A stretch of 57,117 bases of DNA, taken from the IMG/VR virus record IMGVR_UViG_3300037096_000048, positions 1 to 57,117 of that record; one strand, 5' to 3'. Positions 3,701 through 56,519 of the stretch are shown here, one piece after another. The notes under the pieces are model-generated. The model was not told the origin of the DNA. It did no database searches and saw nothing but the letters and a program-made list of their open reading frames with translations. The stretch's first letter is position 1. Each line of letters opens with the position of its first letter. The DNA is from a virus. Lineage: Duplodnaviria; Caudoviricetes. The translations under genes and the position numbers were made by a program.

Positions 3701-4717
3701 ATGGCTTTCACAGTCACGTCATCAGCAGTCGCACCAACAGCAAACTCTTCAGGCTCCAATCATCAGTCCACAGGCAGAGAGCGCGCTATTGCAATGCTCA
3801 CCAAGGGCTCTCCCGCTCAGCTTGCCCTGGTGAGTCAGAATAACGCTTCACCCGAAGATATCTCAGCAATATCACCAACTAAAGCCGCAACACTAGACCA
3901 ATTACGCAGTGCTGAAGACGGACAGGACAATCCGACTCCAGAAGCTACGAAGACCAAAGAAGAGCCGCTGTCATCTCAATATGCCCAGCTCGCCCGCAAG
4001 GAAAAGGCTCTCAGAGCCGAAGCTATCAAGCTTAAAACCGAACGAGAAGCGATCAAGGCAGAACGGGAAGCATCAGCGAAGGCCAATGCCGCTCCGGCGT
4101 TTGATCAATCCAAATACATCGACAAGGACAGGATCACGAAGGACACAATGGCCGTTCTGCAGGAACTTGGTATCGGTTACGACCAGCTCACTCAGATGGC
4201 TCTAAATGGTCCCTCACCAGAATCCCAACAGCAGCAAGCCTACATTGCAAAGTTAGAAGCGAGATTGAACTCGTTAGAAACTAAGCAAGCATCCACTACG
4301 ACAGCCTTCGAGGCCAGTCAACAGCAAGGTTACGATCAAGCCGTCAAGCAGATCAAAGCAGATGCAAGACAGCTGGTGCAATCCGACCCAGACGCCTATG
4401 AGGCGATTCGGGCGGCGGGCACCGTAAATGACGTTGTTGAACTCATTGAACAGACATTCAAAGAGGATGGCATCTTGATGTCAACGGAAGATGCGGCAAA
4501 CGCTGTTGAAGAACACCTAGTGGAAGAAGCGATGAAATACGCGCGTCTGAAAAAGACCCAAGCGCGTATGAGGCCCACAACGGCCACCACGACTCAGCAA
4601 GAGTCAGTCCCCGGCTCCAAGCAGCCACCCAAGACTTTAACGAACGCAGCAGGCGCCCAGCGGCCGATGACAAGTCGCGAACGTGCAATTGCAGCGTTTC
4701 ACAACAAATTGAAATAA
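3701..4717 (+). CDS. Capsid scaffolding protein
   Basis: Coiled-coil, A/E/K/Q-rich, directly before MCP; RERAIA motif at both ends; strong SD. Confidence 0.8.
   Translation: MAFTVTSSAVAPTANSSGSNHQSTGRERAIAMLTKGSPAQLALVSQNNASPEDISAISPTKAATLDQLRSAEDGQDNPTPEATKTKEEPLSSQYAQLARKEKALRAEAIKLKTEREAIKAEREASAKANAAPAFDQSKYIDKDRITKDTMAVLQELGIGYDQLTQMALNGPSPESQQQQAYIAKLEARLNSLETKQASTTTAFEASQQQGYDQAVKQIKADARQLVQSDPDAYEAIRAAGTVNDVVELIEQTFKEDGILMSTEDAANAVEEHLVEEAMKYARLKKTQARMRPTTATTTQQESVPGSKQPPKTLTNAAGAQRPMTSRERAIAAFHNKLK
3894..3915 (+). promoter_or_regulatory. Putative late promoter motif (inside scaffold gene, upstream of MCP)
   Basis: TAGACCAATTACGCAGTGCTGA; first 15 nt identical to the copy at 56498. 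Confidence 0.65.
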
Positions 4718-4731
4718 AAGGATAAAACGAT

Positions 4732-6030
4732 ATGGCAGCGGTATATGCAACTAGTGGTAATCAGATTGCTTCTCTTAAGGAGTTGTATACTGATGACAAA
4801 GATTACATGCAGGATCTAGTCTACAAGGAAAACCCTTTCCTTGCTCTAGTTCCGAAAAATGAGAGTCCAGACGGCTTCGCGGGTAAGTACATCCCGGTTC
4901 CTCTGGAATATGGAGTTCCGCAGGGTCGTTCCCACACGTTCACCAACGCGCAGGGCAACCAGACACCGACGCAGCTTGCAAGTTATTTCGTGTTCGTTAT
5001 TCAGGATTACCAGTTGGTCACTATCACCAACCTCCTGATGGAACAGACGAAAACTGACGCCGGTGCATTCGTCGATGCTGCGAAGCTTCAGATGGATGGC
5101 GGTTTCAGGAACATTACCAACAACATCGCGTTTGAACTCTTCAATAGCGGTACGGCAACGCGTGGCAGTTCTACAGCAACTTCCACCCAAGCCGGTGTAA
5201 CTGTTGGCGGCACGGTCCTTCCCTTGGGCAATCCCCAGGCGATCGTTCAGTTCGAAGTGGGCATGACCATCGTGGCATCTGCTACGGATGGCGGCGCACC
5301 TAGCGCTGACTTTGTCACTCTCACCAGCGTGAACAGGGCAACAGGCGTTGTCAGCGGTACAGCTTCGGCTGCAACGTTGTCGGCTAACTGGGCTATTGGC
5401 ACAGGCATCGCATATCTGACAGTCATGGGCGACCTTCCAGCCGCCGGTGCAACGAGCACTGGTAGCTTCTTGGCACTGTCTGGACTGGCCGCATGGATTC
5501 CAGTCACTTCCCCAGCACCTACGGATAATTTCTGGGGTGTGAATCGTTCGGCTGACCCAACGCGTCTTGCAGGTCTTCGGTACAATGCGCAGGCATTCAC
5601 CATTGAAGAAGGCATGACAAATGCATTGGCATTCGCTAACCGAGAAGGTGCCAAGCCTGACATGATCATCATGGACTTCGCGTCCTATGCATCGCTTGTC
5701 AACGCTCTGGGCGCTAAGGTCTTATATGCTGAAGTGAAGCACGATGAAGTTGAAGTTGCATTCGACGGCATCACGTTTCAGAGCGCGTATGGCAAGGTGA
5801 CCATCTTGGCTGACAGGTCATGTCCTGCTCAGACCGCGTATGTCCTGACCATGAATACGTGGAAGCTTAGGAGCTTGGGCAAGGTACCGCATATCTTAAC
5901 ATATGGTATGGAAGGTTTGGAGGGACTCAGGGTTGGTAACGCGGATGCACTGGAAATCAGGATCGGGTATTATGGCAATCTGATTTGTTCTGCTCCTGGT
6001 TGGAATATGGTGGTCCAGCTCAGCGCGTAA
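4732..6030 (+). CDS. Major capsid protein
   Basis: 432 aa after scaffold; LKELY...QDLVYKENPFLAL N-terminus and GYYGNLICSAPG C-terminus typical of HK97-fold MCPs; strong SD; followed by terminator. Confidence 0.88.
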   Translation: MAAVYATSGNQIASLKELYTDDKDYMQDLVYKENPFLALVPKNESPDGFAGKYIPVPLEYGVPQGRSHTFTNAQGNQTPTQLASYFVFVIQDYQLVTITNLLMEQTKTDAGAFVDAAKLQMDGGFRNITNNIAFELFNSGTATRGSSTATSTQAGVTVGGTVLPLGNPQAIVQFEVGMTIVASATDGGAPSADFVTLTSVNRATGVVSGTASAATLSANWAIGTGIAYLTVMGDLPAAGATSTGSFLALSGLAAWIPVTSPAPTDNFWGVNRSADPTRLAGLRYNAQAFTIEEGMTNALAFANREGAKPDMIIMDFASYASLVNALGAKVLYAEVKHDEVEVAFDGITFQSAYGKVTILADRSCPAQTAYVLTMNTWKLRSLGKVPHILTYGMEGLEGLRVGNADALEIRIGYYGNLICSAPGWNMVVQLSA

Positions 6031-6054
6031 TAGTCAAGTAAAATCGTAAGATTT

Positions 6055-6086
6055 AAAGCCTGGAGCGAAAGCTCTGGGCTTTTTTC
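6055..6086 (+). terminator. Rho-independent terminator after MCP
   Basis: AAAGCCTGGAGC-GAAA-GCTCTGGGCTTT stem with GNRA loop and T tract. Confidence 0.9.
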
Positions 6087-6087
6087 A

Positions 6088-6116
6088 TTTACAACACGTA
6101 CAAATAAGTGCATACT
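6088..6116 (+). promoter_or_regulatory. Sigma70-type promoter, near-leaderless for HNH gene
   Basis: TTTACA-17 nt-CATACT; ATG at 6123. Confidence 0.6.
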
Positions 6117-6122
6117 TTAAGG

Positions 6123-6905
6123 ATGAATACGTGCTCGATAATAGGTTGTAAGAATGCTTATTACTCTAAAGGTTTTTGCAAGAAACACTACGACAAAAAT
6201 CGTAGGCATGGATCGGCTGAATACGAGAGAGTATTAGAGAAAGAGCAAAAATGCACGTCGGCGGGATGTACTAACAATAGGTTTTCGGAAGGTCTATGCG
6301 CTATGCATCGCATGCGGGAACGTCGAAAAGATCCCGCTCAACAGACTAAAGACGTTGCCTACACTAAGGCATGGAAAAAAACTCATCCTGAGCTAGCCGC
6401 CAAGCATCAAGCCTCATACTGTCGTAAAAACGCCAGGCGCCTGAACGTCGCTACTGCCAAATGGAAACGCGATAATTGGGATTATTATAAGGCATACTTG
6501 ATAGCATCCAAAAAGAGGACTAGCAACGCCACGCCGCCTTGGCTTGACAAGCAAAGTCTGATCACTATTTTAAAGGAGGGTCCTAAAGGTCACCACGTTG
6601 ATCACATCATTCCCGTAACCCACAAAGATGTGTGTGGCCTAAACGTGCCTTGGAATTTGCAGTACTTGACCAAAGCTGAGAACCTAGCTAAATCTAATAA
6701 ATTTGACATAAATAAGCCGCTGAAGTATCTTAAACTTATGGAACAGCATTATCAAGCCATAGACAAATCCTTCGCACAATTGGAAACCCAAGGAGACACT
6801 AATGAGCCTAATCCCCCGGTGCAAAACCCTATTCCAGGAATTGGACAGTCTATCCCTACAGGAGAAAGTGCAAGCGATAAATCAGATACGCCAAGCGCTC
6901 CATGA
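6123..6905 (+). CDS. HNH homing endonuclease with N-terminal Cys-rich zinc-finger repeats
   Basis: CSIIGC...FCKKHY and CTSAGC...LCAMH repeats; ATPPW, HVDHIIP, VCGLNVPWNLQYL...NLAKSN. Confidence 0.88.
   Translation: MNTCSIIGCKNAYYSKGFCKKHYDKNRRHGSAEYERVLEKEQKCTSAGCTNNRFSEGLCAMHRMRERRKDPAQQTKDVAYTKAWKKTHPELAAKHQASYCRKNARRLNVATAKWKRDNWDYYKAYLIASKKRTSNATPPWLDKQSLITILKEGPKGHHVDHIIPVTHKDVCGLNVPWNLQYLTKAENLAKSNKFDINKPLKYLKLMEQHYQAIDKSFAQLETQGDTNEPNPPVQNPIPGIGQSIPTGESASDKSDTPSAP
6703..6731 (+). promoter_or_regulatory. Sigma70-type promoter for the ParB/PAPS-reductase operon
   Basis: TTGACA-17 nt-TATCTT at the end of the HNH domain. Confidence 0.65.
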
Positions 6906-7914
6906 ACACTCTCCAATGCGCGACCATCCCATTGACTTAGTGCTCTGGGAGCCTGTCGCCACGGTGAAACGCAATGATTACAATCCTAACTCTGTGGCGC
7001 CTACAGAACTCAAGTTACTAGAAACCTCTATAGCTGAAGACGGCTATACCCAACCCATCGTCACCTGGATCTCCGGTGATCACCGAGAGATAGTTGACGG
7101 TTTCCATCGCAGTAAAATTGCTATGGAGTCTGAAAAGGTCGGTAAGACTCTACACGGTTACATCCCGGTCACCACGGTGAGAGACCGCCAGCTCGATAAG
7201 AGTAACCGCATGGCATCCACAATCCGCCACAACCGTGCGCGCGGCTCTCACAGTGTTGACGCTATGTCTGAGATAGTGCTAGAGCTGAAAGCTAGGAATT
7301 GGAAGACTGCACGCATCTGCAAAGAGCTTGGCATGGAAGAAGACGAAGTGTTGCGCCTATGCCAGATCAGCGGGCTATCCGGACTATTTGGCGACGCTGA
7401 ATTCAGCCTAGCTTGGGAGAGTGACACCGCATCCAATGACTCTGAGTTAGACTTTGCGGCTGACTATTCCGCACTGACCCAGAACACAGGTGACAAGGAC
7501 CGAATCTTCCACACTTTTGACAAATGGGAAGCCGTGGGTGCTGGCTTCTTCGCGCCGGGCTTGAAAGGCCGAAGCAAGGACGAATGCGAGGATGAGTATG
7601 GTGCATTCCTGGCAGACTCTAATGCTTTCGCAGAAGGTATCCAGAAGGTATTTGCGGAATGGCCGAATAGCTGTGAGCATAACCTGACTAACAGCTCCAT
7701 GAATCGCATTGCTTGGATCGGGCAAGCTGCGGCATGTGCGGCACGTGGCTTGCCATCTACGTTCCGGGGTGGTTTTTCCGCGCTGCCTAAAGAGAAGCAG
7801 GACGAAGCTAATCAAGTAGCCTTGCGTTATCTGAATAAATGGCTAAAATCTAAGTCTATACCAGAAGTCACTATGGACAAGGCTTTCAGCGGTCGAGATT
7901 CAGACTTATTCTAG
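6802..7914 (+). CDS. ibrB: IbrB/YbdM-like ParB/Sulfiredoxin-fold protein with ~140 aa extra C-terminal domain
   Basis: NDYNPNSVAP, DGYTQPIV, EIVDGFHR, STIRHNRARG, KELGMEEDEVLRL motifs; SD AAGGAG. Confidence 0.85.
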   Translation: MSLIPRCKTLFQELDSLSLQEKVQAINQIRQALHEHSPMRDHPIDLVLWEPVATVKRNDYNPNSVAPTELKLLETSIAEDGYTQPIVTWISGDHREIVDGFHRSKIAMESEKVGKTLHGYIPVTTVRDRQLDKSNRMASTIRHNRARGSHSVDAMSEIVLELKARNWKTARICKELGMEEDEVLRLCQISGLSGLFGDAEFSLAWESDTASNDSELDFAADYSALTQNTGDKDRIFHTFDKWEAVGAGFFAPGLKGRSKDECEDEYGAFLADSNAFAEGIQKVFAEWPNSCEHNLTNSSMNRIAWIGQAAACAARGLPSTFRGGFSALPKEKQDEANQVALRYLNKWLKSKSIPEVTMDKAFSGRDSDLF

Positions 7915-7922
7915 GAGAAACC

Positions 7923-9164
7923 ATGATCAGACGCCTCAATATAGACGTGCTGCAAGCCTCTAGGGACCGAATCAACGTCATCCTAGACACTATCCCTCAT
8001 CCCTACGTGTCGCTGTCTGGTGGGAAGGATAGCACGGTTTTACTGCATTTGGTTATGGACGAGGCTATCAAGCGCGGTCGAAAGATAGGCGTCTTTATCG
8101 TAGACTTGGAAGCGCAGTACAAAGACACTATTGTCAATTTAGAGCAACTAGTTGAAATGTATAAAGATCACATTGACTTGCATTGGGTATGTCCCGAGAT
8201 GACGCTCAGGAACGCTACATCGGTGTACGAACCTAAATGGACATGCTGGGAACCTAGCCAGGAAACAGTGTGGGTTAGGAACAAACCAAAGTTAGCCGCC
8301 GATATGAGCCAATATGACTTCTACGTACCGGGTATGGAGTTTGAAGAGTTTGTGCCTTTATTTGGCGAATGGTATGGTGGTAATGAACTCTCATGTGCCT
8401 TTGTGGGTATTCGGGCAGACGAATCTCTGAACCGATACAAGACAGTCGCGGTGTTCAAGAAGACTGAAACTATCAACGGCACGTCTTGGACCACGAAGAT
8501 GAGTGCCGCCTGTTATAACGCCTATCCTATTTATGATTGGAAGGCCTCGGACATCTGGAAGTATCATTATGTTCATCCTCATAAGCCACACAACCACATT
8601 TACGATAAGATGCAGATGGCTGGTGTGCCTATGAAGGACCAACGCCTTTGCCAGCCCTACGGTGACACCCAGCGGCGGGGTTTGTGGTTATACAGCGTAC
8701 TAGAAGCTGATACGTGGGCTAAGCTGATTAATCGGGTAATCGGCGCTAATTCGTATGCTCTTTACGCTCAGGAAAAAGGTAATGTGAATGGCGAGGGCAA
8801 GATAACGAAGCCTGCAGGCTTGACTTGGGAACAATACTCCAAAGTATTACTTAAAAGCCTGCCTCGTAAGTCAGCAGAACATTACGCTGAACGCATTAGG
8901 CGGTTCTTCGGAGGCTGGAGTAAACGCGGCTATGCAGTAGTACCCGACGAAGTGAATCAAGACGTAGAGAACCTGCATTTTGCCCCTTCTTGGCGGCGCG
9001 TGGCTAAGACTCTGCTCCGGAACGACTATTGGTGCAAAGGTCTAGGGTTTAGCCAGCCAAAATCGGATGCTTACGGCAAGTACTTAGAACTAAAAGGTAA
9101 AGTTCGCACAAAAGCCAAACCCAAGAAGTGGGGCGACGCTAAAGGAAAAGAGGATCACAAATGA
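7923..9164 (+). CDS. ibrA: IbrA/YbdN-like PAPS-reductase family protein (DUF3440)
   Basis: PP-loop SGGKDS, DLEAQY, GIRADESLNR, YPIYDW, QRLCQPYG, PSWRR...NDYWC. Confidence 0.88.
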   Translation: MIRRLNIDVLQASRDRINVILDTIPHPYVSLSGGKDSTVLLHLVMDEAIKRGRKIGVFIVDLEAQYKDTIVNLEQLVEMYKDHIDLHWVCPEMTLRNATSVYEPKWTCWEPSQETVWVRNKPKLAADMSQYDFYVPGMEFEEFVPLFGEWYGGNELSCAFVGIRADESLNRYKTVAVFKKTETINGTSWTTKMSAACYNAYPIYDWKASDIWKYHYVHPHKPHNHIYDKMQMAGVPMKDQRLCQPYGDTQRRGLWLYSVLEADTWAKLINRVIGANSYALYAQEKGNVNGEGKITKPAGLTWEQYSKVLLKSLPRKSAEHYAERIRRFFGGWSKRGYAVVPDEVNQDVENLHFAPSWRRVAKTLLRNDYWCKGLGFSQPKSDAYGKYLELKGKVRTKAKPKKWGDAKGKEDHK

Positions 9165-9889
9165 CCATCGCACAATCCCCCTACCGCCGTATCTACGCCA
9201 TACCTGACATCCACGGTACCTCGACACTATTGCGCAAAGCCATAAAACTGATACGTGCCCATGGATATGACAAACAGACTGATATGATCATTTTCCTTGG
9301 CGACTACATTGACCGTGGTCCCGATACCCCCGGTGTAATCGACATCGTGCGTAATATGGTGGATAAGGGCTTTGCTAAGGCTATTAGAGGCAATCATGAT
9401 GACTTTGCGGTCAATGTGTACGTTAAATACAGTTTGACCGCTGCGCTCGACTGGGAGGCCAATAACAGGTGGATCACCGACGAACAGTACCCCAACAAAC
9501 GAATGTCTGAGGACCACGTCAGATTCCTGGGCTCATTACCTTATGCGATAGAAATGCAAGGCTTTTTCTTCAGTCACGCACCGGTGTTGAGAGAGAAACA
9601 CCGTAAACCAGGGCCATACCACGTGGATGAGCTGACGTGGACGAAGTTCGGCCCTGAGTGCGAGAAGCCTGGCGGCATGATGGACAAGCATGAAGGTCCA
9701 AAGAGTGATTGTGGCGTCGGTGAGACCCATCTCATAGGCATTTGTGGTCATATCCACCAGAGTAGGGACTTTGTGCGCAGGTTTCCTATGTACCGCATGC
9801 TAGACGCGGGTTGCGGGTGCTCATGGGGCAAGCTTGCAGTACATGAGTGCATTGAAAACATTACGTTTTACGCTGAACACGATAAATAA
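9161..9889 (+). CDS. Ser/Thr phosphatase-like metallophosphoesterase
   Basis: DIHG, GDYIDRG, RGNHD, CGH motifs (lambda NinI-like). Confidence 0.88.
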   Translation: MTIAQSPYRRIYAIPDIHGTSTLLRKAIKLIRAHGYDKQTDMIIFLGDYIDRGPDTPGVIDIVRNMVDKGFAKAIRGNHDDFAVNVYVKYSLTAALDWEANNRWITDEQYPNKRMSEDHVRFLGSLPYAIEMQGFFFSHAPVLREKHRKPGPYHVDELTWTKFGPECEKPGGMMDKHEGPKSDCGVGETHLIGICGHIHQSRDFVRRFPMYRMLDAGCGCSWGKLAVHECIENITFYAEHDK

Positions 9890-9901
9890 AAATAATCGTT
9901 T

Positions 9902-9938
9902 TTGACACAGTTGTGCTAATTTCCAACCGGTGTATTCT
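9902..9938 (+). promoter_or_regulatory. Promoter/operator with 14-bp element TTGACACAGTTGTG
   Basis: Same 14-mer at 51494; TTGTGC-16 nt-TATTCT. Confidence 0.5.
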
Positions 9939-10024
9939 TTAATTGTAGGCAGCTGGAAACACGGAAACCCTTTAAGACGGGATAACAGCATGTAACCAGC
10001 TGCCACTAACAAAGAAGGACGTAT

Positions 10025-10174
10025 ATGAGTGCTAATGTGTTGATTTTATTAATTTTGGTTGCTTCAATGGTGTTGTTTATCTGGTTTTGTGCGATGCTCA
10101 CTGGCGCACTATCCACCGCGCCAGAATGGGCTGTAGCAATGTTTTTTCTTTACATGCTCAATAGAAAGAATTGA
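10025..10174 (+). CDS. Small membrane protein (49 aa), not in ORF track
   Basis: MSANVLILLILVASMVLFIWFCAML...; SD AAGGA. Confidence 0.6.
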   Translation: MSANVLILLILVASMVLFIWFCAMLTGALSTAPEWAVAMFFLYMLNRKN

Positions 10175-10175
10175 T

Positions 10176-10319
10176 ATGGCACAAACAGAAGTCAATGGTA
10201 TAGTTTGGATATTGGACGACATTCAACTGATGACTGGGATCGGGCATGAACATCTGATTGTGAATGGTGTTTTGGTCGCTAAGTTTTTCAACGGTAACTT
10301 GGTAAGGGAGACAGTATGA
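10176..10319 (+). CDS. Small hypothetical protein (47 aa), not in ORF track
   Basis: MAQTEVNGIVWILDD...; ATGA overlap with next ORF. Confidence 0.6.
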   Translation: MAQTEVNGIVWILDDIQLMTGIGHEHLIVNGVLVAKFFNGNLVRETV

Positions 10320-10504
10320 AGAAATCACTAGAAGACTTGTTGAAACGCGTACTTAGAATGTCTGAAAATAGTGTTATTGCAGAAGATAACTTTATGCCTT
10401 CACTTATGGCTGCATGTGCATATAGTTTTGCATACCCTAATTTTCTAACAGTAGCAGACCAAGAAGAATTGAGACACATATATCAAGAATTAGATAGGCA
10501 ATAA
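10316..10504 (+). CDS. Hypothetical protein
   Basis: SD GGGAG; coupled to previous ORF. Confidence 0.65.
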   Translation: MKKSLEDLLKRVLRMSENSVIAEDNFMPSLMAACAYSFAYPNFLTVADQEELRHIYQELDRQ

Positions 10505-10600
10505 AATGTACTCTATCTTAATGTTTTGTCTGGGGTTTTTGATTCATAAGAGTATGCTGTAAAGCCGATAAATGGGATAATAGTTAAAGGGAGAAGGAAT

Positions 10601-10783
10601 ATGACAAAAGTAAATCGCGCTAAGATGTTGTTGGTGGAAATTGAAGCATTGCAGACAGGAGACTATGAAGGCCGGGTGCAAGACATGCTGATGATTGTGA
10701 ACCATATCATTCGAGATGCCCAGGTGCTGGCTAAAGAAGTAGCTGGCGATGAGAGTCAAGAACTAGAGAAGAAAGCGGCATAA
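10601..10783 (+). CDS. Hypothetical protein
   Basis: SD GGGAG/AAGGA upstream. Confidence 0.7.
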   Translation: MTKVNRAKMLLVEIEALQTGDYEGRVQDMLMIVNHIIRDAQVLAKEVAGDESQELEKKAA

Positions 10784-10784
10784 T

Positions 10785-11366
10785 ATGAAGATATTTACTA
10801 TTGCTGACATTCGTTCGTGGAGACCTTGCTATGACCCTATTAAGCACATTTCTGAAACTTGGGAAGGAACAGCTATTGACATCTTGAAAATGGAAAACAT
10901 TACTTTTGCTGACCGACTATGGGTTGTATTGCGTATTGAATTAGTTTCAGAACGTGTTATGAGACTATTTGCAGTATGGTCCTATAGACAAACCCTTGTT
11001 TTTATTAAAGACCCCGATCTTAGAAGTATCGAATGTGCAAACGTGGCAGAAAGATTTGCTAACGGTGAAGCCACACGAGAAGAATTGTCGGCGGCGCGGT
11101 CAGCGGCGCGGTCGTCGGCGGAGTCAGCGGCGTGGTCAGCGGCGCGGTCAGCGGCGTGGTCAGCGGCGGGGTTAGCGGCGCGGTCGTCGGCGGAGTCGGC
11201 GGCGCGGTCGGCGGAGTCGGCGGCGTGGTCAGCGGCGCGGTCGTCGGCGGAGTCGGCGGCGCGGTTGGCGCGGTCGGCGGCGTGGTCAGCGGCGTGGTCA
11301 GCGGCGTATTCGGCTCAATGTGAGAAACTAATTGAAATGATCGAAAAGGAAAATGGTTTGATATGA
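10785..11366 (+). CDS. Phage protein with SAAW/SAAR tetrapeptide repeats
   Basis: N-terminal RLFAVW...AERFANGEATREEL domain followed by Ala/Ser repeats. Confidence 0.8.
   Translation: MKIFTIADIRSWRPCYDPIKHISETWEGTAIDILKMENITFADRLWVVLRIELVSERVMRLFAVWSYRQTLVFIKDPDLRSIECANVAERFANGEATREELSAARSAARSSAESAAWSAARSAAWSAAGLAARSSAESAARSAESAAWSAARSSAESAARLARSAAWSAAWSAAYSAQCEKLIEMIEKENGLI
11088..11316 (+). repeat. Degenerate 12-bp tandem repeat (TCRGCGGCGYGG) inside CDS
   Basis: About 19 GC-rich units within an AT-rich region. Confidence 0.9.
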
Positions 11367-11671
11367 AAAAGACAATGAAATACACCTTGGAAGTTGGAGC
11401 CTTTAAAGATTTCAAACAGTTCTATGCCTTGCATCCTATAATGGACTGCCAAGATGAAGTGTATCTGGAAGTAGAAGTTACCCGGAATCATCTCTATGGC
11501 TTCAATGTTTACGCGGAAGACGATGCAGATATCACCGCGTTCTTGACAGATGAAACTGCAGGAAACATACTTAGAGCGTATAATAAAGATGTAGATGATG
11601 AAATAAAACGCGTTTTTGCAAGCGACGAATATTTTTGCTTTGCCGATCAGTTTGGTAATGACGACTGTTAA
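11363..11671 (+). CDS. Hypothetical acidic protein
   Basis: ATGA overlap with previous gene. Confidence 0.7.
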   Translation: MKKTMKYTLEVGAFKDFKQFYALHPIMDCQDEVYLEVEVTRNHLYGFNVYAEDDADITAFLTDETAGNILRAYNKDVDDEIKRVFASDEYFCFADQFGNDDC

Positions 11672-11684
11672 GGAGATTATCTCT

Positions 11685-11864
11685 ATGAATCCACAACTTG
11701 TTGCTGAATGGATCGCCACAGACCCTAAGATGTATATGGCCGCCGTGCAAGCCTTGACCTTGTTGGAACGGCTCAAGTTCGTGGCATCTGCATCGCATGA
11801 CTCGGAGATAACAGCCTGTATCGCTTCCCTATTGAAAGCCCTTGATCAGGCTAGGTGTGTTTAA
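11685..11864 (+). CDS. Hypothetical protein
   Basis: SD TAAGGAG before ATG 11685 (MNPQLVAEW). Confidence 0.65.
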   Translation: MNPQLVAEWIATDPKMYMAAVQALTLLERLKFVASASHDSEITACIASLLKALDQARCV

Positions 11865-11865
11865 A

Positions 11866-11973
11866 ATGATAAGAGGATTAAAACAAAAATATAGGTCGCA
11901 GTTGTGGTCGCGGTCGGCGGCAAATCCAAGCGACAGCGCTGACTTACTGTGTTATGACTGGGTGGTCTTATGA
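11866..11973 (+). CDS. Small hypothetical protein (35 aa)
   Basis: Fills the gap exactly with ATGA overlap into next ORF; contains a WSRSAA remnant of the upstream repeat. Confidence 0.4.
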   Translation: MIRGLKQKYRSQLWSRSAANPSDSADLLCYDWVVL

Positions 11974-12251
11974 AGAGCGAATTTAAGCCCCTCTTGCAGC
12001 GCTATTGGGAGAACGAGGACAAGATTAGAGCAATCGAGTTCGAGACCGGTCTCTCCGTTGATGCTATTGCGGACAATCCAGATCTGGCATCAGAAGTTGA
12101 CCTAAATCGATTAGAAGCGCTACTCGAAAACAAGGAGGGTCTGCTCGTCTCTCTCGCGAAATCCGAACAGCAGGACATTGCTCACGCGAATGTTTCGGAC
12201 CTTATGCGCTTTCGGCAACTGTCTTCTTGCGTCTCTGCCGAAGTTTCTTAA
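11970..12251 (+). CDS. Hypothetical protein
   Basis: 93 aa ORF at end of small-gene cluster. Confidence 0.65.
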   Translation: MKSEFKPLLQRYWENEDKIRAIEFETGLSVDAIADNPDLASEVDLNRLEALLENKEGLLVSLAKSEQQDIAHANVSDLMRFRQLSSCVSAEVS

Positions 12252-12370
12252 GAGCCTCACGTGTCCGAGGCAACTCTTTGACTGCCTCTGGCCGGGATTG
12301 CAGCGATAATCAATATAAGCCTTAATACCAAAAACTAACCTAAAACCCAGTATTTAACCCCAAGACTGGC

Positions 12371-12423
12371 ATAATGTACAGTATGTTACACAAAAAGTAA
12401 CATATTGGACATTATAGTGTCCA
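12371..12423. repeat. 19-bp imperfect inverted repeat plus overlapping short palindrome
   Basis: ATAATGTACAGTATGTTAC / GTAACATATTGGACATTAT; TGGACA-TTATAG-TGTCCA. Confidence 0.75.
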
Positions 12424-12436
12424 TTAGCTGCCATTA

Positions 12437-12458
12437 TAGACCAAATGCGCTAGGGCGA
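12437..12458 (+). promoter_or_regulatory. Putative late promoter motif
   Basis: TAGACCAAATGCGCTAGGGCGA upstream of the resumed virion module. Confidence 0.65.
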
Positions 12459-12563
12459 AGGCTTGAGATATCCTCAGAGCTTCAGCCCGTTGAGCCTAGT
12501 CCCCGTGCTTGCCGGTGAATGCGTCAATTTAGACGATATAGAGGGGCACGTGAGGATACCTAT

Positions 12564-13889: not shown

Positions 13890-13896
13890 GAGAATT

Positions 13897-13971
13897 TGCG
13901 CGGTAGTGGAGTGGTACCATACGAGGCTCATAACCTCAGTGACAAGGGTTCGAATCCCTTCCGCGCTACCA
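13897..13971 (+). tRNA. tRNA with CAU anticodon (Met/fMet-like)
   Basis: Acceptor TGCGCGG/CCGCGCT (1:72 mismatch), D-arm GTGG/CCAT, loop CTCATAA, T-arm AAGGG-TTCGAAT-CCCTT, ACCA end. Confidence 0.92.
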
Positions 13972-14062
13972 GAGTGACCACGAGATCCCAGGCTGAGCGT
14001 AGTTGAAACAGTTGATCAGCTTGGGATAGTAACCTTAACTAAGGGAATTCTTAATAAAGCTT

Positions 14063-15169: not shown

Positions 15170-15173
15170 GCCT

Positions 15174-15491
15174 GTGGCGTTCACACGACAGCAGACAAGC
15201 GACTTGGACCTTCAGTTAGTGCAATCGAACGTACAAGCCGCTTTGACGCCTTTACAGAATATACCTATGGTAGGCGGTAATGTTCACGGTAGCATTGCTC
15301 TTCCGGTAACCTTGAATTCAGCAGCAAACCCCACAGCCGTGTCCCATGGATTGGGTAGAATTCCGCAGTATTGGACATTGCTGGGGATAATGCAAAATAG
15401 TACTGTGTGGCAGTCACAACCTTCAGATGCCAACTTCATCTATCTAAGCTGCAGTGCCGCTGTATGCCAGATCATATTGTGGGTGAACTAA
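15174..15491 (+). CDS. Small virion protein
   Basis: GTG start just after upstream stop; VSHGLGRIP motif. Confidence 0.65.
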   Translation: MAFTRQQTSDLDLQLVQSNVQAALTPLQNIPMVGGNVHGSIALPVTLNSAANPTAVSHGLGRIPQYWTLLGIMQNSTVWQSQPSDANFIYLSCSAAVCQIILWVN

Positions 15492-15492
15492 T

Positions 15493-18600: not shown

Positions 18601-18967
18601 GCTTTACACTACATCGGATTACCCGCAGATATGCGATTGGCTGCGTTCGAGAGCATTGCCTATAGTGCCAGAAGACTGTCTACCGCGCATTGGATATCTA
18701 GTGGAAGGTGTATGTGCGTCATTCTTGTACCAGACGGATAGTTGTTTTGCTATCAGCGATTGTACAATCTCCAATCCTAATGCTGATTCAGCGCTTAGAT
18801 CAGCGTGTGTGGACAGGGTTATCTTACAAATACTTAAGAAAGCTAAAGAATTAGGCTTTAAGTACGTGAAAGGCGAGACCAAAAACGCTAGTATGGACGA
18901 CAGAGGCCTACGCCTAGGTTTCCTCAGTACAGGGTCATTCTCTGGCTGGATCAAGGAGTTGCGTTAA
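18593..18967 (+). CDS. GNAT-like protein preceding the internal virion proteins
   Basis: VRLYTTSDY...AKELGF...RLGF; probable TTG start overlapping the nozzle stop. Confidence 0.6.
   Translation: MVRLYTTSDYPQICDWLRSRALPIVPEDCLPRIGYLVEGVCASFLYQTDSCFAISDCTISNPNADSALRSACVDRVILQILKKAKELGFKYVKGETKNASMDDRGLRLGFLSTGSFSGWIKELR
18875..18896 (+). promoter_or_regulatory. Putative late promoter motif (upstream of ejection proteins)
   Basis: GAGACCAAAAACGCTAGTATGG; shares 14 nt with the copy at 25766. Confidence 0.55.
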
Positions 18968-22565: not shown

Positions 22566-22576
22566 GGTAATAACTC

Positions 22577-25500: not shown

Positions 25501-25768
25501 TTCTAAGGGTGAAAGCGTGCCGTATAGCACCCGAATGGGCCTCTCATTGTTCTTAGGACAGCCTTTAGACAGCACTATGACCCCTACAGGCATAACAGCT
25601 GCTCAGATGGCCCTGGTGATGCCAAGCAAGGGTGCTCCGGCTACTTCTCCCACGAATGGAAAACCTCCATCGGCTAGTAGCGTCAAAGGATTAGAGAAAA
25701 TGGGCACTATGTACCAGACAGCGGGTCAGAAAGCGCAGAAGGATCGGGATGCTGGAGCTAAAGCCTAG
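22577..25768 (+). CDS. Large internal virion / ejection protein
   Basis: 1063 aa, Ala-rich helical, glycine-zipper hydrophobic stretches; third gene of the ejection block. Confidence 0.7.
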   Translation: MVDGSGIPTTSDADQEFDATVARANSPAEAPAAPYVQPMTEQAPQGPVNVMNPQGDLVSIPGEHLDAALAGGYTRATQAQLDAYDQQQKYGTGLQTAKTAAESTAKGLVGPLAPLVETDILGIDPKEIAAREEANPGVATAGTIGGLTVGSIYGVGEAALLGKAGDLAAHGVAAMLPEATGLAGRLGTGIATGAARGVAENALFQAGDETSKMIEQPTADFTDTAMTNVGMAALLGGGIGGAFGTVSPLWKATFGKDAQAGLEAAHNDANGIPQTSGPDLPGPIKKIISVYGGVSEKDTTTYLKERDAMRALPSTDEIYQHGLQYVGTINDAVAKGKMDEVDALAAYKSADSDMRQDLKEQGYDVRNAAKTAADSLKQAQTDLAGTLRTNATETAPSITDAVGKLKQQALDGSEAAVDALHYSDKTISLENTYNKGQELIDKLRLRGTTEAKAQAQQLQTYLDGVHQDLGDINAVPAARAKPLIQGLQANGKYGLGASEFDKGLSGQYKQLAYTLDSDLKTAVPEYAAAMKPVAAKFSLLDDLKDYGDPDSAARRIKGLTDPLKYKEDMPMLRDLEAHTNTQFTNHIEPYANPDITARLKKAIPEYAEHQKAAAIEAEFKNPRTQAAMQEALANSPEHKALVSARAAKEAAILEKESLRGVTTGNLESKLKSLGMGKEGAKNAFAQFPQMNGQNLEDVLRLKRTQEAFSKGQMNGSRLVNAFAGLLGGIGGLFTGHTFAGMALGSQVGAFEDRYGPTSVQKLLDIYLNNPSNPIVKALGGGVSADAARVAMAKVVDSANPASAEGFKAAADLIHNATKGENLITKATKGIFKAGAEVLPSSQLPTDATRASIDKSLKRIQTNPNELLQKSNNAAYYMPQHGAALAQTATKASNYLNSIRPNTAPAQPLDSKRDPSPTEKAAFGRALDIAQQPLVVLKSLAEGRLVPDDMKHLQALYPALTAKLQSGLISQMTEHISKGESVPYSTRMGLSLFLGQPLDSTMTPTGITAAQMALVMPSKGAPATSPTNGKPPSASSVKGLEKMGTMYQTAGQKAQKDRDAGAKA

Positions 25769-25787
25769 ACCAAAAACGCTCTGGTGA
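25766..25787 (+). promoter_or_regulatory. Putative late promoter motif
   Basis: TAGACCAAAAACGCTCTGGTGA upstream of the tail-fibre block. Confidence 0.65.
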
Positions 25788-25830
25788 ACAGTCTAGGGCC
25801 ATAAGCCCTTAACTTATAAGGGGTCTGTCA

Positions 25831-44419: not shown

Positions 44420-44420
44420 T

Positions 44421-45124: not shown

Positions 45125-45200
45125 TCAGGCTATAGTTTAACCGGTAAAACCTCGGATTGTGGCTCCGATGATTGGTGTTCAAGTCACCATGGCCTGACCA
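45125..45200 (+). tRNA. tRNA-His (GUG) with U-1:A73
   Basis: Acceptor CAGGCTA/TGGCCTG, TCGGA-TTGTGGC-TCCGA anticodon arm, TGGTG-TTCAAGT-CACCA T-arm, ACCA. Confidence 0.9.
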
Positions 45201-52280: not shown

Positions 52281-52320
52281 CAATAACTTATCTAATAGGC
52301 AAAATAGACCTATGTAATAG

Positions 52321-52349: not shown

Positions 52350-52356
52350 CTTAACT

Positions 52357-52746
52357 ATGATGACCTTTATTGAAAAACTAACCAAGTTACTTCGTCAGAT
52401 CAGGGGCTTATTTCCCTCCCAAGTCCCACAGGGTATTACTGAATTCGAGCAATGGGCTGCCAGCATTGCCGCTACCTGGCATCTGCCCACGGCGGACCTG
52501 AATTCTATCAAGTCTACCCTAGCCGTGATAGTCATGCATATGGGTCCAAAGGACGATTCTAAATCCAAGTACCACTTTGTCCGCACTTTCAGAGCCGGTG
52601 CCGCAAAGCAAATCGCCAGCGCTGTGTTCACTGATATTAAGAATACCCAAGCCACAACGGCCCAGAAAGCCCTTGAAGCTAAACCCGCTGAAGCTACAGC
52701 TGTCATTCCCACGGCGGTAGCTACAAGTGGATCAAAAGCATTCTAA
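52357..52746 (+). CDS. Hypothetical protein
   Basis: ATG 7 nt after the -10 element. Confidence 0.7.
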   Translation: MMTFIEKLTKLLRQIRGLFPSQVPQGITEFEQWAASIAATWHLPTADLNSIKSTLAVIVMHMGPKDDSKSKYHFVRTFRAGAAKQIASAVFTDIKNTQATTAQKALEAKPAEATAVIPTAVATSGSKAF

Positions 52747-53155
52747 GCAGAAATTCTATGAAACGGAAGCTTTCAAAGAGCTTGAAATCAAGTGGAAAAA
52801 ACGCCTTGAACGCTCCGGTTTCGACGATATTGAGTACGAAGGCGGCTGCCTTAAAAAACCCGCCTGCGGGCTCTTCATCACAAAATCAAACGGTAGAGAT
52901 TACAAACTCCGAAAAGTACATTACGATTCAGTCGAAGATTACTATCGTTTGGCGGGACAGTTCTTGTATGATTATACCTTTGCAAACTCTAAAGAAAAAC
53001 TCATCTGGAAACTACACGCTGAAGGTATCAGTCAAAGAAATATAGTCATAGCATTGAGCAAGAAAGGTATCCATACGTACAAACTTCAAGTACATAACTT
53101 ATTGCAAATGTTAGAGAATGAGATGATAAATAAGTGCAAAAGCACAAAGATTTAA
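52727..53155 (+). CDS. Putative sigma-region-4-like HTH transcription factor
   Basis: EKLIWKLHAEGISQRNIVIAL...VHNLL resembles sigma-4/LuxR-type HTH. Confidence 0.5.
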   Translation: MDQKHSKQKFYETEAFKELEIKWKKRLERSGFDDIEYEGGCLKKPACGLFITKSNGRDYKLRKVHYDSVEDYYRLAGQFLYDYTFANSKEKLIWKLHAEGISQRNIVIALSKKGIHTYKLQVHNLLQMLENEMINKCKSTKI

Positions 53156-53538
53156 TCACCACTCGTGCCAATCTCCCTGGTGATCACGCATTCATCATGG
53201 CTACTTGGTTGCGCGGTGCCTACTTTGGCAACCCTTGGTTTAATCTTATACCCATGACTATTTACATGCTGTCCTATCATACGTTCTTGGAAAATTTACT
53301 GCAGCTCCCCGGCGTAGTGGTTAAAGTTGCATGCCTCCGGGAAGACCCTGATGTAATCTTGGGCTATAGCGTAAGTTGTGGCACTAGATTACATTGGGTA
53401 TTTGTTAAGTCCGCGTGGCGCAAGATCGGCATAGGCCGTAGTCTGTTACCTGAAAAACTAGAGTCTGTATCTCATATAACTGAAGTAGGCCGAAGCCTGC
53501 TTAAAAAGTGTCCGTCTGTCATCTTTAACCCATTCTGA
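53134..53538 (+). CDS. GNAT-family acetyltransferase
   Basis: ILGY, LHWVFVKSAWRKIGIGRSLL acetyl-CoA motif A. Confidence 0.75.
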   Translation: MQKHKDLITTRANLPGDHAFIMATWLRGAYFGNPWFNLIPMTIYMLSYHTFLENLLQLPGVVVKVACLREDPDVILGYSVSCGTRLHWVFVKSAWRKIGIGRSLLPEKLESVSHITEVGRSLLKKCPSVIFNPF

Positions 53539-53551
53539 AAGGAATAAGTCT

Positions 53552-53830: not shown

Positions 53831-53832
53831 AA

Positions 53833-54162
53833 ATGAAACGTAAAGTATTGTCCGCCCGACTGCATGATATGAAGTTCGTTATCGCTGGCATGGGTCAGCT
53901 GGAAACCGTGTTGCCGCCCCAGCGCAAGACCTACCCAGGGCTTGAAATGTGGTATGATGGTTCCATCCTATGCCTAATGATCGCTGGCAAGCCCTATGGT
54001 ATCCCTTTGGCTAATGTGATGCTCATGGAGTTTGGTCCGGAAGAATTACTCCCGTGTGTATCAGTGGACTCCAATAATTTGCGTAGTCCACAGTCCTCGT
54101 TCGTCATGACAGACCAAGCACGTTATGACAATGAGCAAGCTGGGATCACTCGGAAAGTATGA
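53833..54162 (+). CDS. Hypothetical protein
   Basis: Coupled ORF. Confidence 0.7.
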   Translation: MKRKVLSARLHDMKFVIAGMGQLETVLPPQRKTYPGLEMWYDGSILCLMIAGKPYGIPLANVMLMEFGPEELLPCVSVDSNNLRSPQSSFVMTDQARYDNEQAGITRKV

Positions 54163-54398: not shown

Positions 54399-54718
54399 CC
54401 GAATACAAGTCTATCAAGAACACCAAGGGGCAATATGAGAAGGTTGCTGTAGAAATCCCCCCAGAACCGCCTAGTATCCTCCCGGTGTCAAATGATGACT
54501 TGTGCATTGACACCCTACTCAAGTCCAGTCTAGGAGCCATAGATAGACTCTTAAAGCTGATATGGACCGACGTATCACACGGTAGCATTGACCGGGCTAC
54601 CGTGCAAAATCTTAAGGATGTCGTATCCATGCTCTTAGAGCTGAAGAAGAAAGAGCAAGATATGCTGGATATGCTACCCGATGCAGACCTGAAGAAACTA
54701 GCTGAAGATGTTGATTAG
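54395..54718 (+). CDS. Candidate terminase small subunit
   Basis: Helical, two genes before terL; ends LPDADLKKLA. Confidence 0.45.
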   Translation: MTEYKSIKNTKGQYEKVAVEIPPEPPSILPVSNDDLCIDTLLKSSLGAIDRLLKLIWTDVSHGSIDRATVQNLKDVVSMLLELKKKEQDMLDMLPDADLKKLAEDVD

Positions 54719-55022
54719 CGTCCACCATAAAATAGACTGTGAAGTAGACGGAAAGCCCAGACAACTCACAGTAGAAGAATACGGACGCGGCGGCACTAAA
54801 TCGCCTGAGATGTGGGTTATTGTCTGCGATGGAAAACGCTACGTCCCTAGAGCACAAAGACTAGCGCGAATAACAGTTACACTAAACGGCTTATTTAAGA
54901 TTGTCTATGCTCCAGCAGGACTCTTTAAAGACTTGGTCTACAAAACGAATCCTTTCATGGAGATGATTCCCAAAAACGAAACTTGGGGGGGAAAGTACAT
55001 CAGGCTGCCGGATGCTGACTAA
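54708..55022 (+). CDS. Hypothetical protein
   Basis: Overlaps neighbours. Confidence 0.6.
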   Translation: MLISVHHKIDCEVDGKPRQLTVEEYGRGGTKSPEMWVIVCDGKRYVPRAQRLARITVTLNGLFKIVYAPAGLFKDLVYKTNPFMEMIPKNETWGGKYIRLPDAD

Positions 55023-56433
55023 AGCTGGAGCGGCACGGGCCTATAACAAACGTAAGAACTATAAAGCAAAGCCCATAGTCCTGGACCCTAATTTTCCAGA
55101 CCAAAATTCCTTAATCTTAGACCCGGCCCGGTATCTAGCGGTGCAGTGCTCTAGGCGCGCGGGAAAGACTACCGGTCTGGCTATCAAGTTCTTCAACACC
55201 CTAGAGAAGTACCCCGGTTCACAGTGCATCTATCTCTCTCTCACTTATGATTCAGCCCGCGATATCATGTGGCCCGTATTACAGGAACTTAACGATAAAT
55301 ACAAGATTGGATGCACATTTATAGAGTCTAAGTTGTGGATGTTACATCCTAATGGCTCAAAGTTGAAGCTTGTCGGCGCAGACATGAAGAACTTCATCAA
55401 GCGTCTCAAAGGCCGCAAATTCCCCGGTGTAGGTGTGGATGAGAGCCAGGACTTTGGATCACACCTGCAGAGTCTCGTGGATGATATTCTGACTCCATCC
55501 ATTGCTGACTATGAAGATGGCTGGATAGCCCTCACCGGCACCCCAGGCCCAGTGCCGCAGGGCTATTTCTTTGATATTACCAACAATAAGAAGTTTGGCT
55601 ATTCCAACCACAGCTGGACACTCTTCGAAAACCCGCACATGCCCAATCCCAGGGCGTTCGTAGCGGACTTGAAAAAACGCCGCGAGTGGGAAGACAACTA
55701 TCCTACTTTACTCAGGGAATGGCGCAATCAGTGGGTATTAGACGTACAAAGTTTATGGATCAGATACAACGAGAGCATCAATCACTACACAGAGCTGCCT
55801 ACCTTGCCCGCAGGCAAGCTTTGGAACTACATCTTAGGCATTGACATAGGGTACAGGGATGCTGACGCCTTGGCCGTCCTAGCGTGGTCTGAGCACGATC
55901 CTAACACCTACCTGGTGAAAGAAGTCATCACGACCAAGCAGGATATAACTTCCCTTGCTGAGCAAATAGCAGCCCTAGCTATAGAGTACCCTATCTCTAA
56001 GATGATCATGGATGAAGGCGCACTGGGAAAGAAGGCCGCCGAAGAATTACGCCGCCGGAAGCACTTACCAATCCAGCCCGCAGACAAGACTCGCAAACAA
56101 GAAAACGTTGAAATCCTTAATGATTGTCTACGTCGCGGCAGGCTCAAAGCCAAAAGTGCTTCGCGTTTCGCACAAGACTCGTACTTAGTTCAGATAGATT
56201 GGGACAAGTCTACTCCCGAGCGCATAATTATTAAGAAAAATCCACATTCTGATATAATCGACAGCGTACTGTACGCTTTCAAAGAAAGTCCAGCCTTCAC
56301 CTATGTCGCCACAGTAGACAAGCCCAAATATGGTACGAAGGAATGGGCAGAAGCCCAGCAAAGTCAAATGTTTGAAGCGGCACAGACTCACTTTCAGGAA
56401 CTAGCCGACCGCGATAAGGGTTGGCACCCATAA
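55012..56433 (+). CDS. terL: Terminase large subunit
   Basis: SRRAGKT Walker A, VDE Walker B, TGTP, ENPH, GIDIGYRD nuclease, HSDIIDSVLY. Confidence 0.95.
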   Translation: MLTKAGAARAYNKRKNYKAKPIVLDPNFPDQNSLILDPARYLAVQCSRRAGKTTGLAIKFFNTLEKYPGSQCIYLSLTYDSARDIMWPVLQELNDKYKIGCTFIESKLWMLHPNGSKLKLVGADMKNFIKRLKGRKFPGVGVDESQDFGSHLQSLVDDILTPSIADYEDGWIALTGTPGPVPQGYFFDITNNKKFGYSNHSWTLFENPHMPNPRAFVADLKKRREWEDNYPTLLREWRNQWVLDVQSLWIRYNESINHYTELPTLPAGKLWNYILGIDIGYRDADALAVLAWSEHDPNTYLVKEVITTKQDITSLAEQIAALAIEYPISKMIMDEGALGKKAAEELRRRKHLPIQPADKTRKQENVEILNDCLRRGRLKAKSASRFAQDSYLVQIDWDKSTPERIIIKKNPHSDIIDSVLYAFKESPAFTYVATVDKPKYGTKEWAEAQQSQMFEAAQTHFQELADRDKGWHP

Positions 56434-56497
56434 AGTTATCCAATATTACCCATAAACGATAGTAACTTCCATAAACTCGCTATAATTCATCAAATAG

Positions 56498-56519
56498 TAG
56501 ACCAATTACGCATATCTGA
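56498..56519 (+). promoter_or_regulatory. Putative late promoter motif (head operon)
   Basis: TAGACCAATTACGCATATCTGA. Confidence 0.7.

Follow-up and report, generated by a model that had tools for sequence, protein, structure and literature searches.

What purpose is served by a short motif that recurs five times, always on the + strand, in the genome of an uncultured phage in which no RNA polymerase gene can be detected? The window analysed here (the whole stretch of DNA, 57,117 base pairs (bp), 48% G+C) is the entire IMG/VR virus record IMGVR_UViG_3300037096_000048, which has a completeness rating of 100%, and an earlier note on this sequence had described the motif as a phage-specific late promoter marking every late gene block. 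We scanned this genome and its relatives for the motif, searched the downstream DNA for conserved RNA structures and mapped RNA from peat onto part of the genome, and we conclude that the motif is real and very probably a late promoter of this phage. Exact matches to AGACCAANNRCGC were found at five positions (3895, 12438, 18876, 25767 and 56499), all on the + strand and none on the - strand, as the note had counted them, against a chance expectation of 0.04, and five copies of this pattern were reached in none of 100 shuffled genomes.

The five copies, each taken as a 22-mer, agree pairwise at 13-19 of 22 positions. Copy A (56498..56519, + strand, TAGACCAATTACGCATATCTGA) is intergenic, between the large terminase gene (55012-56433) and a 91-amino-acid gene at 56544, which it precedes by 46 nucleotides (nt) and which is the first gene of the head block. 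Copy S (3894..3915, + strand, TAGACCAATTACGCAGTGCTGA), identical to copy A at 19 of 22 positions, is located 194 nt into the scaffold open reading frame (ORF; 3701-4717) and 838 nt before the capsid gene (4732-6030). Copy C (12437..12458, + strand, TAGACCAAATGCGCTAGGGCGA) is again intergenic and lies 82 nt before the ATG at 12519 that opens the ORF of an Ice_binding-domain protein (12519-13889, Pfam E-value 2.5e-32), followed by a tRNA-Met and by the ORFs 14063-15169 and 15493-18600. Copy D (18875..18896, + strand, GAGACCAAAAACGCTAGTATGG) lies within a small ORF (18494-18967), 92 nt ahead of ORF 18967-20562. The earlier reader had labelled this gene and the two large ones that come after it "ejection proteins". 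Copy E (25766..25787, + strand, TAGACCAAAAACGCTCTGGTGA) is found 65 nt before ORF 25831-26223, which is followed by ORF 26225-29143, and its bases 1-3 are the stop codon of ORF 22577-25768. Population data gave 6 variant places over 20 kb, none of them inside a copy, which are too few to interpret.

We then built a weight matrix from copies A, C, D and E alone and scanned the genome with it. Copy S was recovered at 24.9 bits and the next match in the genome scored 11.5 bits; the maximum over 300 dinucleotide shuffles was 21.5 bits, so that 24.9 was reached in 0 of 300. A sixth, weaker copy at about 54110, which the note had placed before the terminase genes, was rejected: this site (54111..54123, + strand) has one mismatch, yet matches with at most two mismatches number 31 in the genome against 25.8 expected, it is absent from the 12 best matrix matches, and scans of the relatives retrieved no copy of their own motifs ahead of the terminase. 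That every late gene block is marked was also an overstatement, since copies are missing from the terminase genes and from the lysis genes on the minus strand.

To follow the motif across relatives, as the note had proposed, we retrieved related loci from IMG/VR, 34 of them by the terminase (45-69% identity) and 23 by the 130-amino-acid protein encoded after site E, then read 13 related records whole and mapped their genes to those of the window; 12 of these records are counted below, the remaining one (G015) having been inspected by eye only. The exact motif of the window was found in none of the 34 related loci. What 9 of the 12 relatives carried was a genome-specific motif of their own (14-30 nt), placed at three or four homologous positions: after the terminase (A), before the ice-binding/tail block (C), and before (D) and after (E) the large internal-protein genes, on the gene strand throughout. 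The private motif was ACCTAATACGCTATATTAAG in G004 (A, C, D and E, with 0-2 mismatches), ATGAACGAATAGCCTTCTATAG in G003, TTGGGACGTAGCGGCCTTATAG in G008 and TACACTTAGTAAGGC in G002 (each at A, C, D and E), GTGACAAACCTGCT in G005 (four places), a 30-mer beginning with TAGGGACTAAATAGC in G006 (A, C and D), TGGACAATNNGACANTGTAGGAGCC in G010 (A, C and D, with a weaker E seen by eye only), AAGTGTCATTTCGGA in G012 (counted at three places by scan, A and C among them, with a weaker E variant seen by eye only) and GCCTTAATTAAACAATTTTGTA in G013 (A, C and E). G001 had its own motif at two places, A and E. Counted by position, the homologous site A bore the genome's own motif in G001-G006, G008, G010, G012 and G013, and site E in G001-G005, G008 and G013. 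The register of the motif is ambiguous in some genomes. For G006, the word AAGACCAAATTTTGCC of locus L039 was also tried and discarded, the real repeated motif being located 30 nt further on.

These motifs are private to each genome. Copies from the same genome differ at 0-3 of 20 bases in G003, G004, G006 and G008; when 20-mers were compared across nine genomes in both directions, the best foreign match on the gene strand had 4-7 differences in 20. A single foreign match on the opposite strand, in which the G004-type motif fits the minus strand of G005 with 3 mismatches, lies inside the DNA polymerase gene and is taken as chance. At site C, the motifs of six genomes are in register, with a 5' core (AGAC, GGAC, GAAC or TACC) placed 25-27 nt before a conserved GAGAT(A/G)TCCTC. 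By this shared register, the motifs are diverged forms of one ancestral element, with a 5' part for specificity and, on its 3' side, a part whose sequence is often TATAG or TAGG.

Conserved RNA structures begin directly after the motif. After copy E, a hairpin with a 5-bp stem and the loop CATAA (25795..25809, + strand) starts 8 nt past the copy, and across genomes the hairpin of site E starts 2-8 nt past the motif. In the alignment of 12 genomes, 91.7% of cells are paired and 4 of the 5 pairs show compensatory change; the covariation score was reached in 0 of 500 shuffles, and sliding the partner strand by one column lowered pairing to 51-67%. We read this hairpin as the start of a 5' leader. 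The leader after copy C (12469..12558, + strand) has a 5' arm, TATCCTCA (12469-12476), that can pair with TGAGGATA (12551-12558), which contains the ribosome-binding site of the Ice_binding-domain gene, whose start aligns with an ATA at 12564. A direct duplex search showed that in all 7 genomes searched the arm of site C, of the form GAT(A/G)TCCT(C/T), is able to form a duplex of 8-11 bp with the ribosome-binding site (GAGGATA, directly ahead of the start codon), and the flanks of the duplex co-vary (TCA/TGA, TTAG/CTAA, TCGG/CCGA and TCT/AGA). These structures show that transcription covers the DNA directly 3' of the motif and that this DNA functions at the RNA level. In the motif itself no secondary structure is conserved; what is kept, within one genome only, is its plain sequence.

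Two further features of the leader of site C were recorded. The structured leader (about 100 nt, 12465-12566, with homologous leaders in G002, G003, G004, G006, G008 and G010) can sequester its own ribosome-binding site and has a conserved GGTGAGA box in its middle; an Rfam search of the window returned two tRNAs only, and no family for this leader. The Ice_binding-domain homologues of six relatives start with ATG followed by A-N-R-N codons. The aligned codon of the window, at 12564, is ATA, with a ribosome-binding site 7 nt before it and an in-frame ATG 45 nt upstream, so that the start of this gene is either non-canonical or shifted.

An end of transcription can also be proposed. Directly after the capsid gene lies an intrinsic-terminator-like hairpin (6055..6082, + strand) with a 12-bp stem followed by a T run, which is likely the end of the units beginning at A and S; it was the only strong terminator-like site on the + strand of the regions scanned, and none was found at any of the five copies. 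In G011, G012 and G013, too, the capsid gene has a similar hairpin after it.

Onto positions 3500-23499 we mapped RNA from two peat metatranscriptomes, each of a different study, along with DNA from two further runs. The RNA runs are available as contigs, which cannot reveal transcript starts or timing. RNA depth peaked at 7-13 in a stretch comprising the 3' portion of the scaffold gene and the capsid gene and fell to 0 in the bin 6168-6834, directly beyond the terminator-like hairpin, in both runs. Past copy S, RNA contigs start at 3964 and 3974. By our arithmetic, these contigs wholly explain the depth of the bin 3500-4166 (7.16 and 7.09), which leaves no RNA in 3500-3963, in a place where a DNA contig spans 3500-4179. 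Ahead of copy D (15506-18840) RNA depth was 0-1.75, followed by 9.65 and 5.5 in the bin of copy D, with contigs starting at 18914 and 18960. At copy C, RNA was absent from 11504-12170 and reached 4.33 in the bin of the copy in one run. Contigs start 17-84 nt past the ends of copies S and D and none lie upstream. The unevenness of the cover argues against DNA carry-over, and the orientation of the loose contig ends (at 3964, at 3974 and at two further informative ends) would fit a stranded library with RNA of the sense strand. Taken together, these data are a weak but consistent hint that RNA starts past the copies.

Copy S lies inside a gene, and the earlier note had supposed that it gives the capsid protein a transcript of its own. 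All scaffold proteins share a core, P(L/I/V)SxQ(Y/F)A.LAR, after a variable N-terminal part, and copy S of the window precedes the first core codon (3965) by 71 nt. We scanned the 130 nt before the scaffold core in ten relatives, each with its own motif, and compared the best match with random windows of the same genome. Matches were found in G012 (2 of 15 positions mismatched, 52 nt ahead of the core), G003 (7 of 22, 77 nt), G013 (5 of 22, 58 nt), G010 (9 of 25, 64 nt) and G006 (13 of 30, 66 nt), each equalled or bettered by only 0.7-2.8% of random windows, and no likeness to the own motif was found there in G001, G002, G004, G005 and G008 (p 0.2-0.9). Fisher's combination over all ten relatives gave p = 1.8e-4, so that an internal site in the scaffold gene is an old feature of the lineage, partly retained and best kept in the window. 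With such a site in 5 of 10 relatives, and with contigs from 3964 and 3974 and none in 3500-3963, the separate capsid transcript gains support. An internal promoter of this kind, kept in part of the lineage, suggests a way to set the ratio of capsid to scaffold.

Two observations concern the same region. A second, degenerate copy of the motif core, AGACCAAAGAAGA, occupies 3951-3963 and ends directly before one RNA contig start (3964) and the scaffold core codon (3965). On the minus strand, 3643-3672 holds a sigma-70-like site with a TG extension that points away from the scaffold start and may relate to the antisense idea of the earlier reader.

We next asked to which class of promoter the element could belong. 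No sigma-70-like site on the + strand (-35 and -10 hexamers 16-18 nt apart) overlaps or adjoins any copy, and the numbers of such sites in three regions were at chance level (21 against 16.6, 6 against 4.9 and 6 against 6.3). The sigma-54 pattern GG-N10-GC does not describe the element either: the copies of the window read AG...GC, with AG for GG, and are one base short, and the homologous motifs of G003 and G004 contain no GG. A T7-type RNA polymerase (PF00940) was searched for in six frames of the window and nine relatives and gave no match at E <= 10 (the control genomes lack this family, and the sensitivity of the search is unproven); Sigma70_r2 and r4_2 domains likewise gave no match in these six frames, and Pfam and PHROG scans of the ORFs retrieved no RNA polymerase or sigma factor. 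On all three counts (not sigma-70, not sigma-54, no detectable polymerase) the earlier description stood. The form of the element is that of a promoter for a single-subunit RNA polymerase (about 20 nt, asymmetric, near-invariant and heading transcription units), and no cognate T7-type polymerase gene was found with it. Copies are asymmetric, always on the gene strand, and placed 26-133 nt before the first gene of a structural block.

The five copies are probably the phage's own late promoters, or the core recognition element of these, used by a host RNA polymerase that a phage factor redirects. The reading as a phage-specific late promoter fits the conserved positions of the private motifs, the RNA structures downstream of them and the starts of the RNA contigs, and since no RNA polymerase or sigma factor is recognisable, the host enzyme together with a phage factor is the most likely reader; what we infer from these observations is that the element is active as a promoter, where transcription starts, that it is "late", that the host polymerase is used and which protein is the factor. 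The element would be about 22 nt long, asymmetric and on the coding strand, its specificity being set by the 5' part (TAGACCAAWWRCGC in this phage) and its 3' part being looser. Transcription would start at the 3' end of the element or a few bases beyond. Copy A would open the head block, C the Ice_binding-domain gene and the tail genes, D the genes of the large internal proteins and E the distal tail or fibre genes, and S would add an extra transcript through the capsid gene to the terminator at 6055-6082. The host RNA polymerase would be brought to the element by a phage-encoded specificity factor that co-evolves with the motif, for which our candidate is a conserved, basic, 142-amino-acid helix-turn-helix protein, c142 (52727-53155).

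The c142 gene (+ strand; predicted isoelectric point 9.3) is the second of three conserved, overlapping small genes located between the replication and the packaging genes (52357..53538), after c141 (52357-52746, + strand) and before c134 (53134-53538, + strand; weakly GNAT-like). It lies 1.9 kb before the large terminase gene, and the order is the same in relatives. Among the 34 terminase loci, several of which are near-identical, homologues of c141, c142 and c134 were found in 22, 23 and 24, respectively. G007, the one complete relative without c142, also lacks a repeated motif, a single case. An AlphaFold model of c142 from 30 sequences (predicted local distance difference test (pLDDT) 85.7) has a C-terminal helix-turn-helix (residues ~65-142), possibly of the sigma-region-4/LuxR type, and among the 50 structural matches listed by VIA-align were 19 sigma-factor chains (mostly region 4) and 4 LuxR-type domains with Z 5.4-7.0. 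A profile of c142 searched against PDB gave LuxR-type domains as its best matches, non-significant at E 0.28-1.1. Look-alikes found with a protein language model included RinA-family phage activators and a viral "sigma factor family" cluster (score 0.90), which we treat as a lead only. At least 295 proteins belong to the family, the longest of their contigs reaching ~59 kb, and the 120 listed are all unnamed or called "hypothetical protein" and carry no Pfam domain. On these grounds c142 is a candidate for the reader of the motif.

Two other proteins were considered and set aside: c141 as a sigma region 2, which would make a split sigma factor with c142 (model pLDDT 86.4, best Z 5.3, with an uninformative list of matches), and a 207-amino-acid ORF (44352-44975) as a sigma candidate, which is lineage-specific, has no PDB match and was called OB-like by a guess made by eye.

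A more specific proposal is that the c142 family is a new family of minimal polymerase-specificity factor, consisting of a region-4-like helix-turn-helix only, perhaps acting with its two overlapping neighbours, which retargets the host RNA polymerase to single-element promoters of 14-30 nt, and that factor and promoter have co-diversified into a private code at four or five fixed positions of nearly every genome. This we put forward tentatively and hold to be rather doubtful as a whole. To our knowledge, private promoter codes have so far been typical only of phages that carry their own RNA polymerase.

Several results weigh against the promoter reading or against c142 as its factor. The pattern had been picked after inspection of the data, and we used as a control every 7-mer + gap + 3-mer pattern in genomes shuffled by dinucleotides; in 17 of these 20 shuffles, at least one such pattern reached 5 or 6 copies. 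The five copies alone are therefore not decisive, and the bare count was dropped as proof. The copies of the window are also the least alike among all genomes, with only ~11 of 22 positions invariant. Among the relatives, G007 has no repeated motif, and G011 is ambiguous in that its repeated word may equal a terminator arm. At site C, single duplexes are no longer than the longest found in 200 shuffles of each 3' region, and the weight is therefore placed on conservation and co-variation. The contig starts after copy S are 10 nt apart, 48-58 nt past the end of the motif, and carry loose ends that we take to be sequencing adapter. For c142, the top structural match is the N-terminal helix-turn-helix of a small terminase (Z 7.5), all structural Z scores are below 8 and possibly reflect just a common fold, a Foldseek search against PDB returned nothing at E <= 0.001, and hmmscan against Pfam at E <= 10 gave two unrelated weak matches only and no Ltr/RinA model (such as PF05263). 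If the leader hairpins lie at the extreme 5' end of the RNA, the motif would be nearer to the start than -35, which is unusual for a region-4-like reader.

The alternative that survives best, which we nevertheless consider unlikely, is that the motif acts in RNA, as a site of processing or stabilisation. An endoribonuclease, either phage-specific or of the host, would cut a long late transcript there, and the hairpin-led downstream pieces would accumulate. This reading would account for the conserved RNA structures that start directly after the motif and for the several copies that lie inside or overlap the upstream coding sequence, and cutting followed by decay of the upstream part would equally leave contigs past the copies and none upstream. 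The motif is, however, an unstructured, linear stretch of 14-30 nt, near-invariant within a genome and different in each relative, which is the usual signature of a protein-DNA site, and no host-type promoter that could give one long late transcript is recognisable upstream. The phage processing sites to be compared, such as the RNase III sites of T7 and the RegB sites of T4, are structured or very short, unlike this motif.

Less probable still is a promoter read by an unrecognised phage-encoded RNA polymerase in place of the host enzyme and a helper. The architecture is that of single-subunit enzymes (~20 nt, asymmetric, few near-invariant copies that differ between relatives, leader hairpins) and many ORFs have no known family, but the Pfam RNA_pol model had no match in six frames of ten genomes (with a sensitivity that is unproven), the conserved ORFs of no known function are all 80-210 amino acids, below the size of any known polymerase, and the largest functionless ORF outside the structural block, of 439 amino acids, is repetitive and not conserved in relatives. 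Very improbable, in our view, is a DNA site for packaging, replication, ParB-like partition or homing: the window does have a ParB-like gene (6802-7914) and HNH genes, yet G001, G002, G004 and G005 keep their motifs without a ParB-like gene, and asymmetry, gene strand, the distance of 26-133 nt to the first gene of a block and the conserved RNA leaders that follow are at odds with such a site. That the copies are a chance pattern selected after the fact can practically be set aside, in spite of the 10-base gapped patterns with 5 or 6 copies in 17 of 20 shuffled genomes, given the recovery of copy S by the four-copy matrix (24.9 bits against a shuffle maximum of 21.5), the single strand of all copies, the position of 3 of 5 in the small intergenic fraction and the own-type motifs of relatives at homologous places, comparative data that already contradict it.

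The ends of the record repeat each other, positions 1-142 and 56976-57117 being identical at 141 of 142 bases, and the genome is therefore a closed circle or a circular permutation of ~56,975 bp; an ORF starting at 56822 runs across the junction into 3-869. The + strand carries nearly all genes. PHROG and Pfam scans identified the large terminase, the portal (1117-3027), the capsid protein (SU10_MCP type), two genes on the - strand for an endolysin and a helicase, and a replication block with a RecA/UvsX-like protein, SbcCD, a primase-helicase, a family A DNA polymerase, ribonucleotide reductase and dUTPase. For ORFs between 14063 and 29143, the names adaptor, nozzle, ejection and fibre are those of the earlier reader; podovirus gene order fits them, and the PHROG and Pfam scans confirmed none. 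Among cultured phages there was no DNA match and no tblastn match to the capsid protein, and the best identity of the terminase was 23%, to T5-like phages. DNA of the phage is present in peat and permafrost metagenome runs.

Between the terminator of the capsid gene and copy C, the block 6108-12251 encodes an HNH endonuclease, the ParB-like protein, a PAPS-reductase-like protein, a phosphatase and small ORFs. Being mostly missing in relatives and low in RNA cover, this block looks like an inserted accessory module. The tRNA-Met (CAT, 13897-13971) is within the transcription unit of copy C and a tRNA-His (GTG) is found at 45126-45200. In-frame tandem repeats in two ORFs (10785-11366 and 37390-38709) are the source of the commonest gapped words of the genome; one of these ORFs has SAARSAAWSAA-like units and the other encodes a DUF6745 protein with a 12-nt periodicity. 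In ORF 54708-55022, directly before the large terminase, the last 31 residues are 55% identical to capsid residues 27-57 (E 6e-10), and a capsid-like piece precedes the terminase in G010 as well. The capsid gene is interrupted by an insert of ~0.9-1 kb in G004 (L049, ~9093-11315) and in G008 (~13145-15248, oriented coordinates), possibly an intron or an intein that carries a homing gene.

If the promoter reading is true, the late transcription map of an uncultured lineage of peat and permafrost phages could be drawn from sequence alone; it would show four or five units with leaders, and a single terminator. Promoters private to each genome, in phages that lack a polymerase of their own, would then point to a specificity factor that is small, evolves fast and is as yet without a family name. 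The sets of promoter and factor, if they do not cross-react, would be candidate orthogonal expression parts, and the lineage would offer a clean system in which to study how the specificity of DNA reading evolves together with its target.

Single-element promoters without a -35 box, used by the host core enzyme with a phage protein, are those of the late sigma factors gp55/gp33 of T4, gp33/34 of SPO1 and gp36 of phiEco32, and the capsid family matched here, SU10_MCP, is named after a relative of phiEco32. The present case differs from these late sigma factors in that no region-2-like protein was found and in that the motif is genome-specific; in T4-like phages the late motif is the same across relatives.

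In shape, the element is like the promoters of single-subunit polymerases. PMC10914365 reports that LUZ19 and other Phikmvvirus carry four copies of a 20-bp motif at conserved genome positions and that this motif is almost identical among the species of the genus. The elements of the T7 group and of Phikmvvirus share with ours a length of ~20 nt, asymmetry, gene strand, few and near-invariant copies and conserved positions before structural blocks, as well as structured leaders after the element and a specificity that differs between related phages. Unlike these phages, the window and nine relatives have no detectable polymerase gene, and compared with Phikmvvirus as described there, the motif here differs from genome to genome, though the terminases are 45-69% identical. 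The same paper describes polymerase-less Pseudomonas phages, YuA and 14-1, with non-bacterial promoter motifs at mapped transcription starts (9-11 copies) that are inactive without infection and are thought to need a phage factor redirecting the host polymerase. Conserved phage-specific motifs without a phage polymerase are common to these phages and to ours; going by what is described there, theirs were mapped experimentally in cultured phages, whereas ours, with 5 copies and no host, are known from sequence and RNA contigs.

For the candidate factor, the comparison is with the Ltr superfamily (RinA, ArpU and LtrA-C), late activators in temperate phages of Gram-positive bacteria which are described in PMC3753634 as working alike. 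According to the same paper, their C-terminal part sets DNA specificity, one family resembles sigma-70 region 4, there is no cross-reaction between phages, and the proteins act at a single promoter before terS via direct repeats. By this account c142 is like Ltr/RinA proteins in size, charge, gene position between replication and packaging and a C-terminal DNA-reading part, and unlike them in its 4-5 single sites after the terminase and none before it, and in having no Ltr Pfam match. We do not file c142 as a member of Ltr, the likeness consisting of the language-model score of 0.90 and a common fold. Judged against literature compared for the general kind of system only, what is likely new here is a lineage-wide set of private promoters at fixed places without a phage polymerase, together with an unnamed helix-turn-helix family as their candidate reader.

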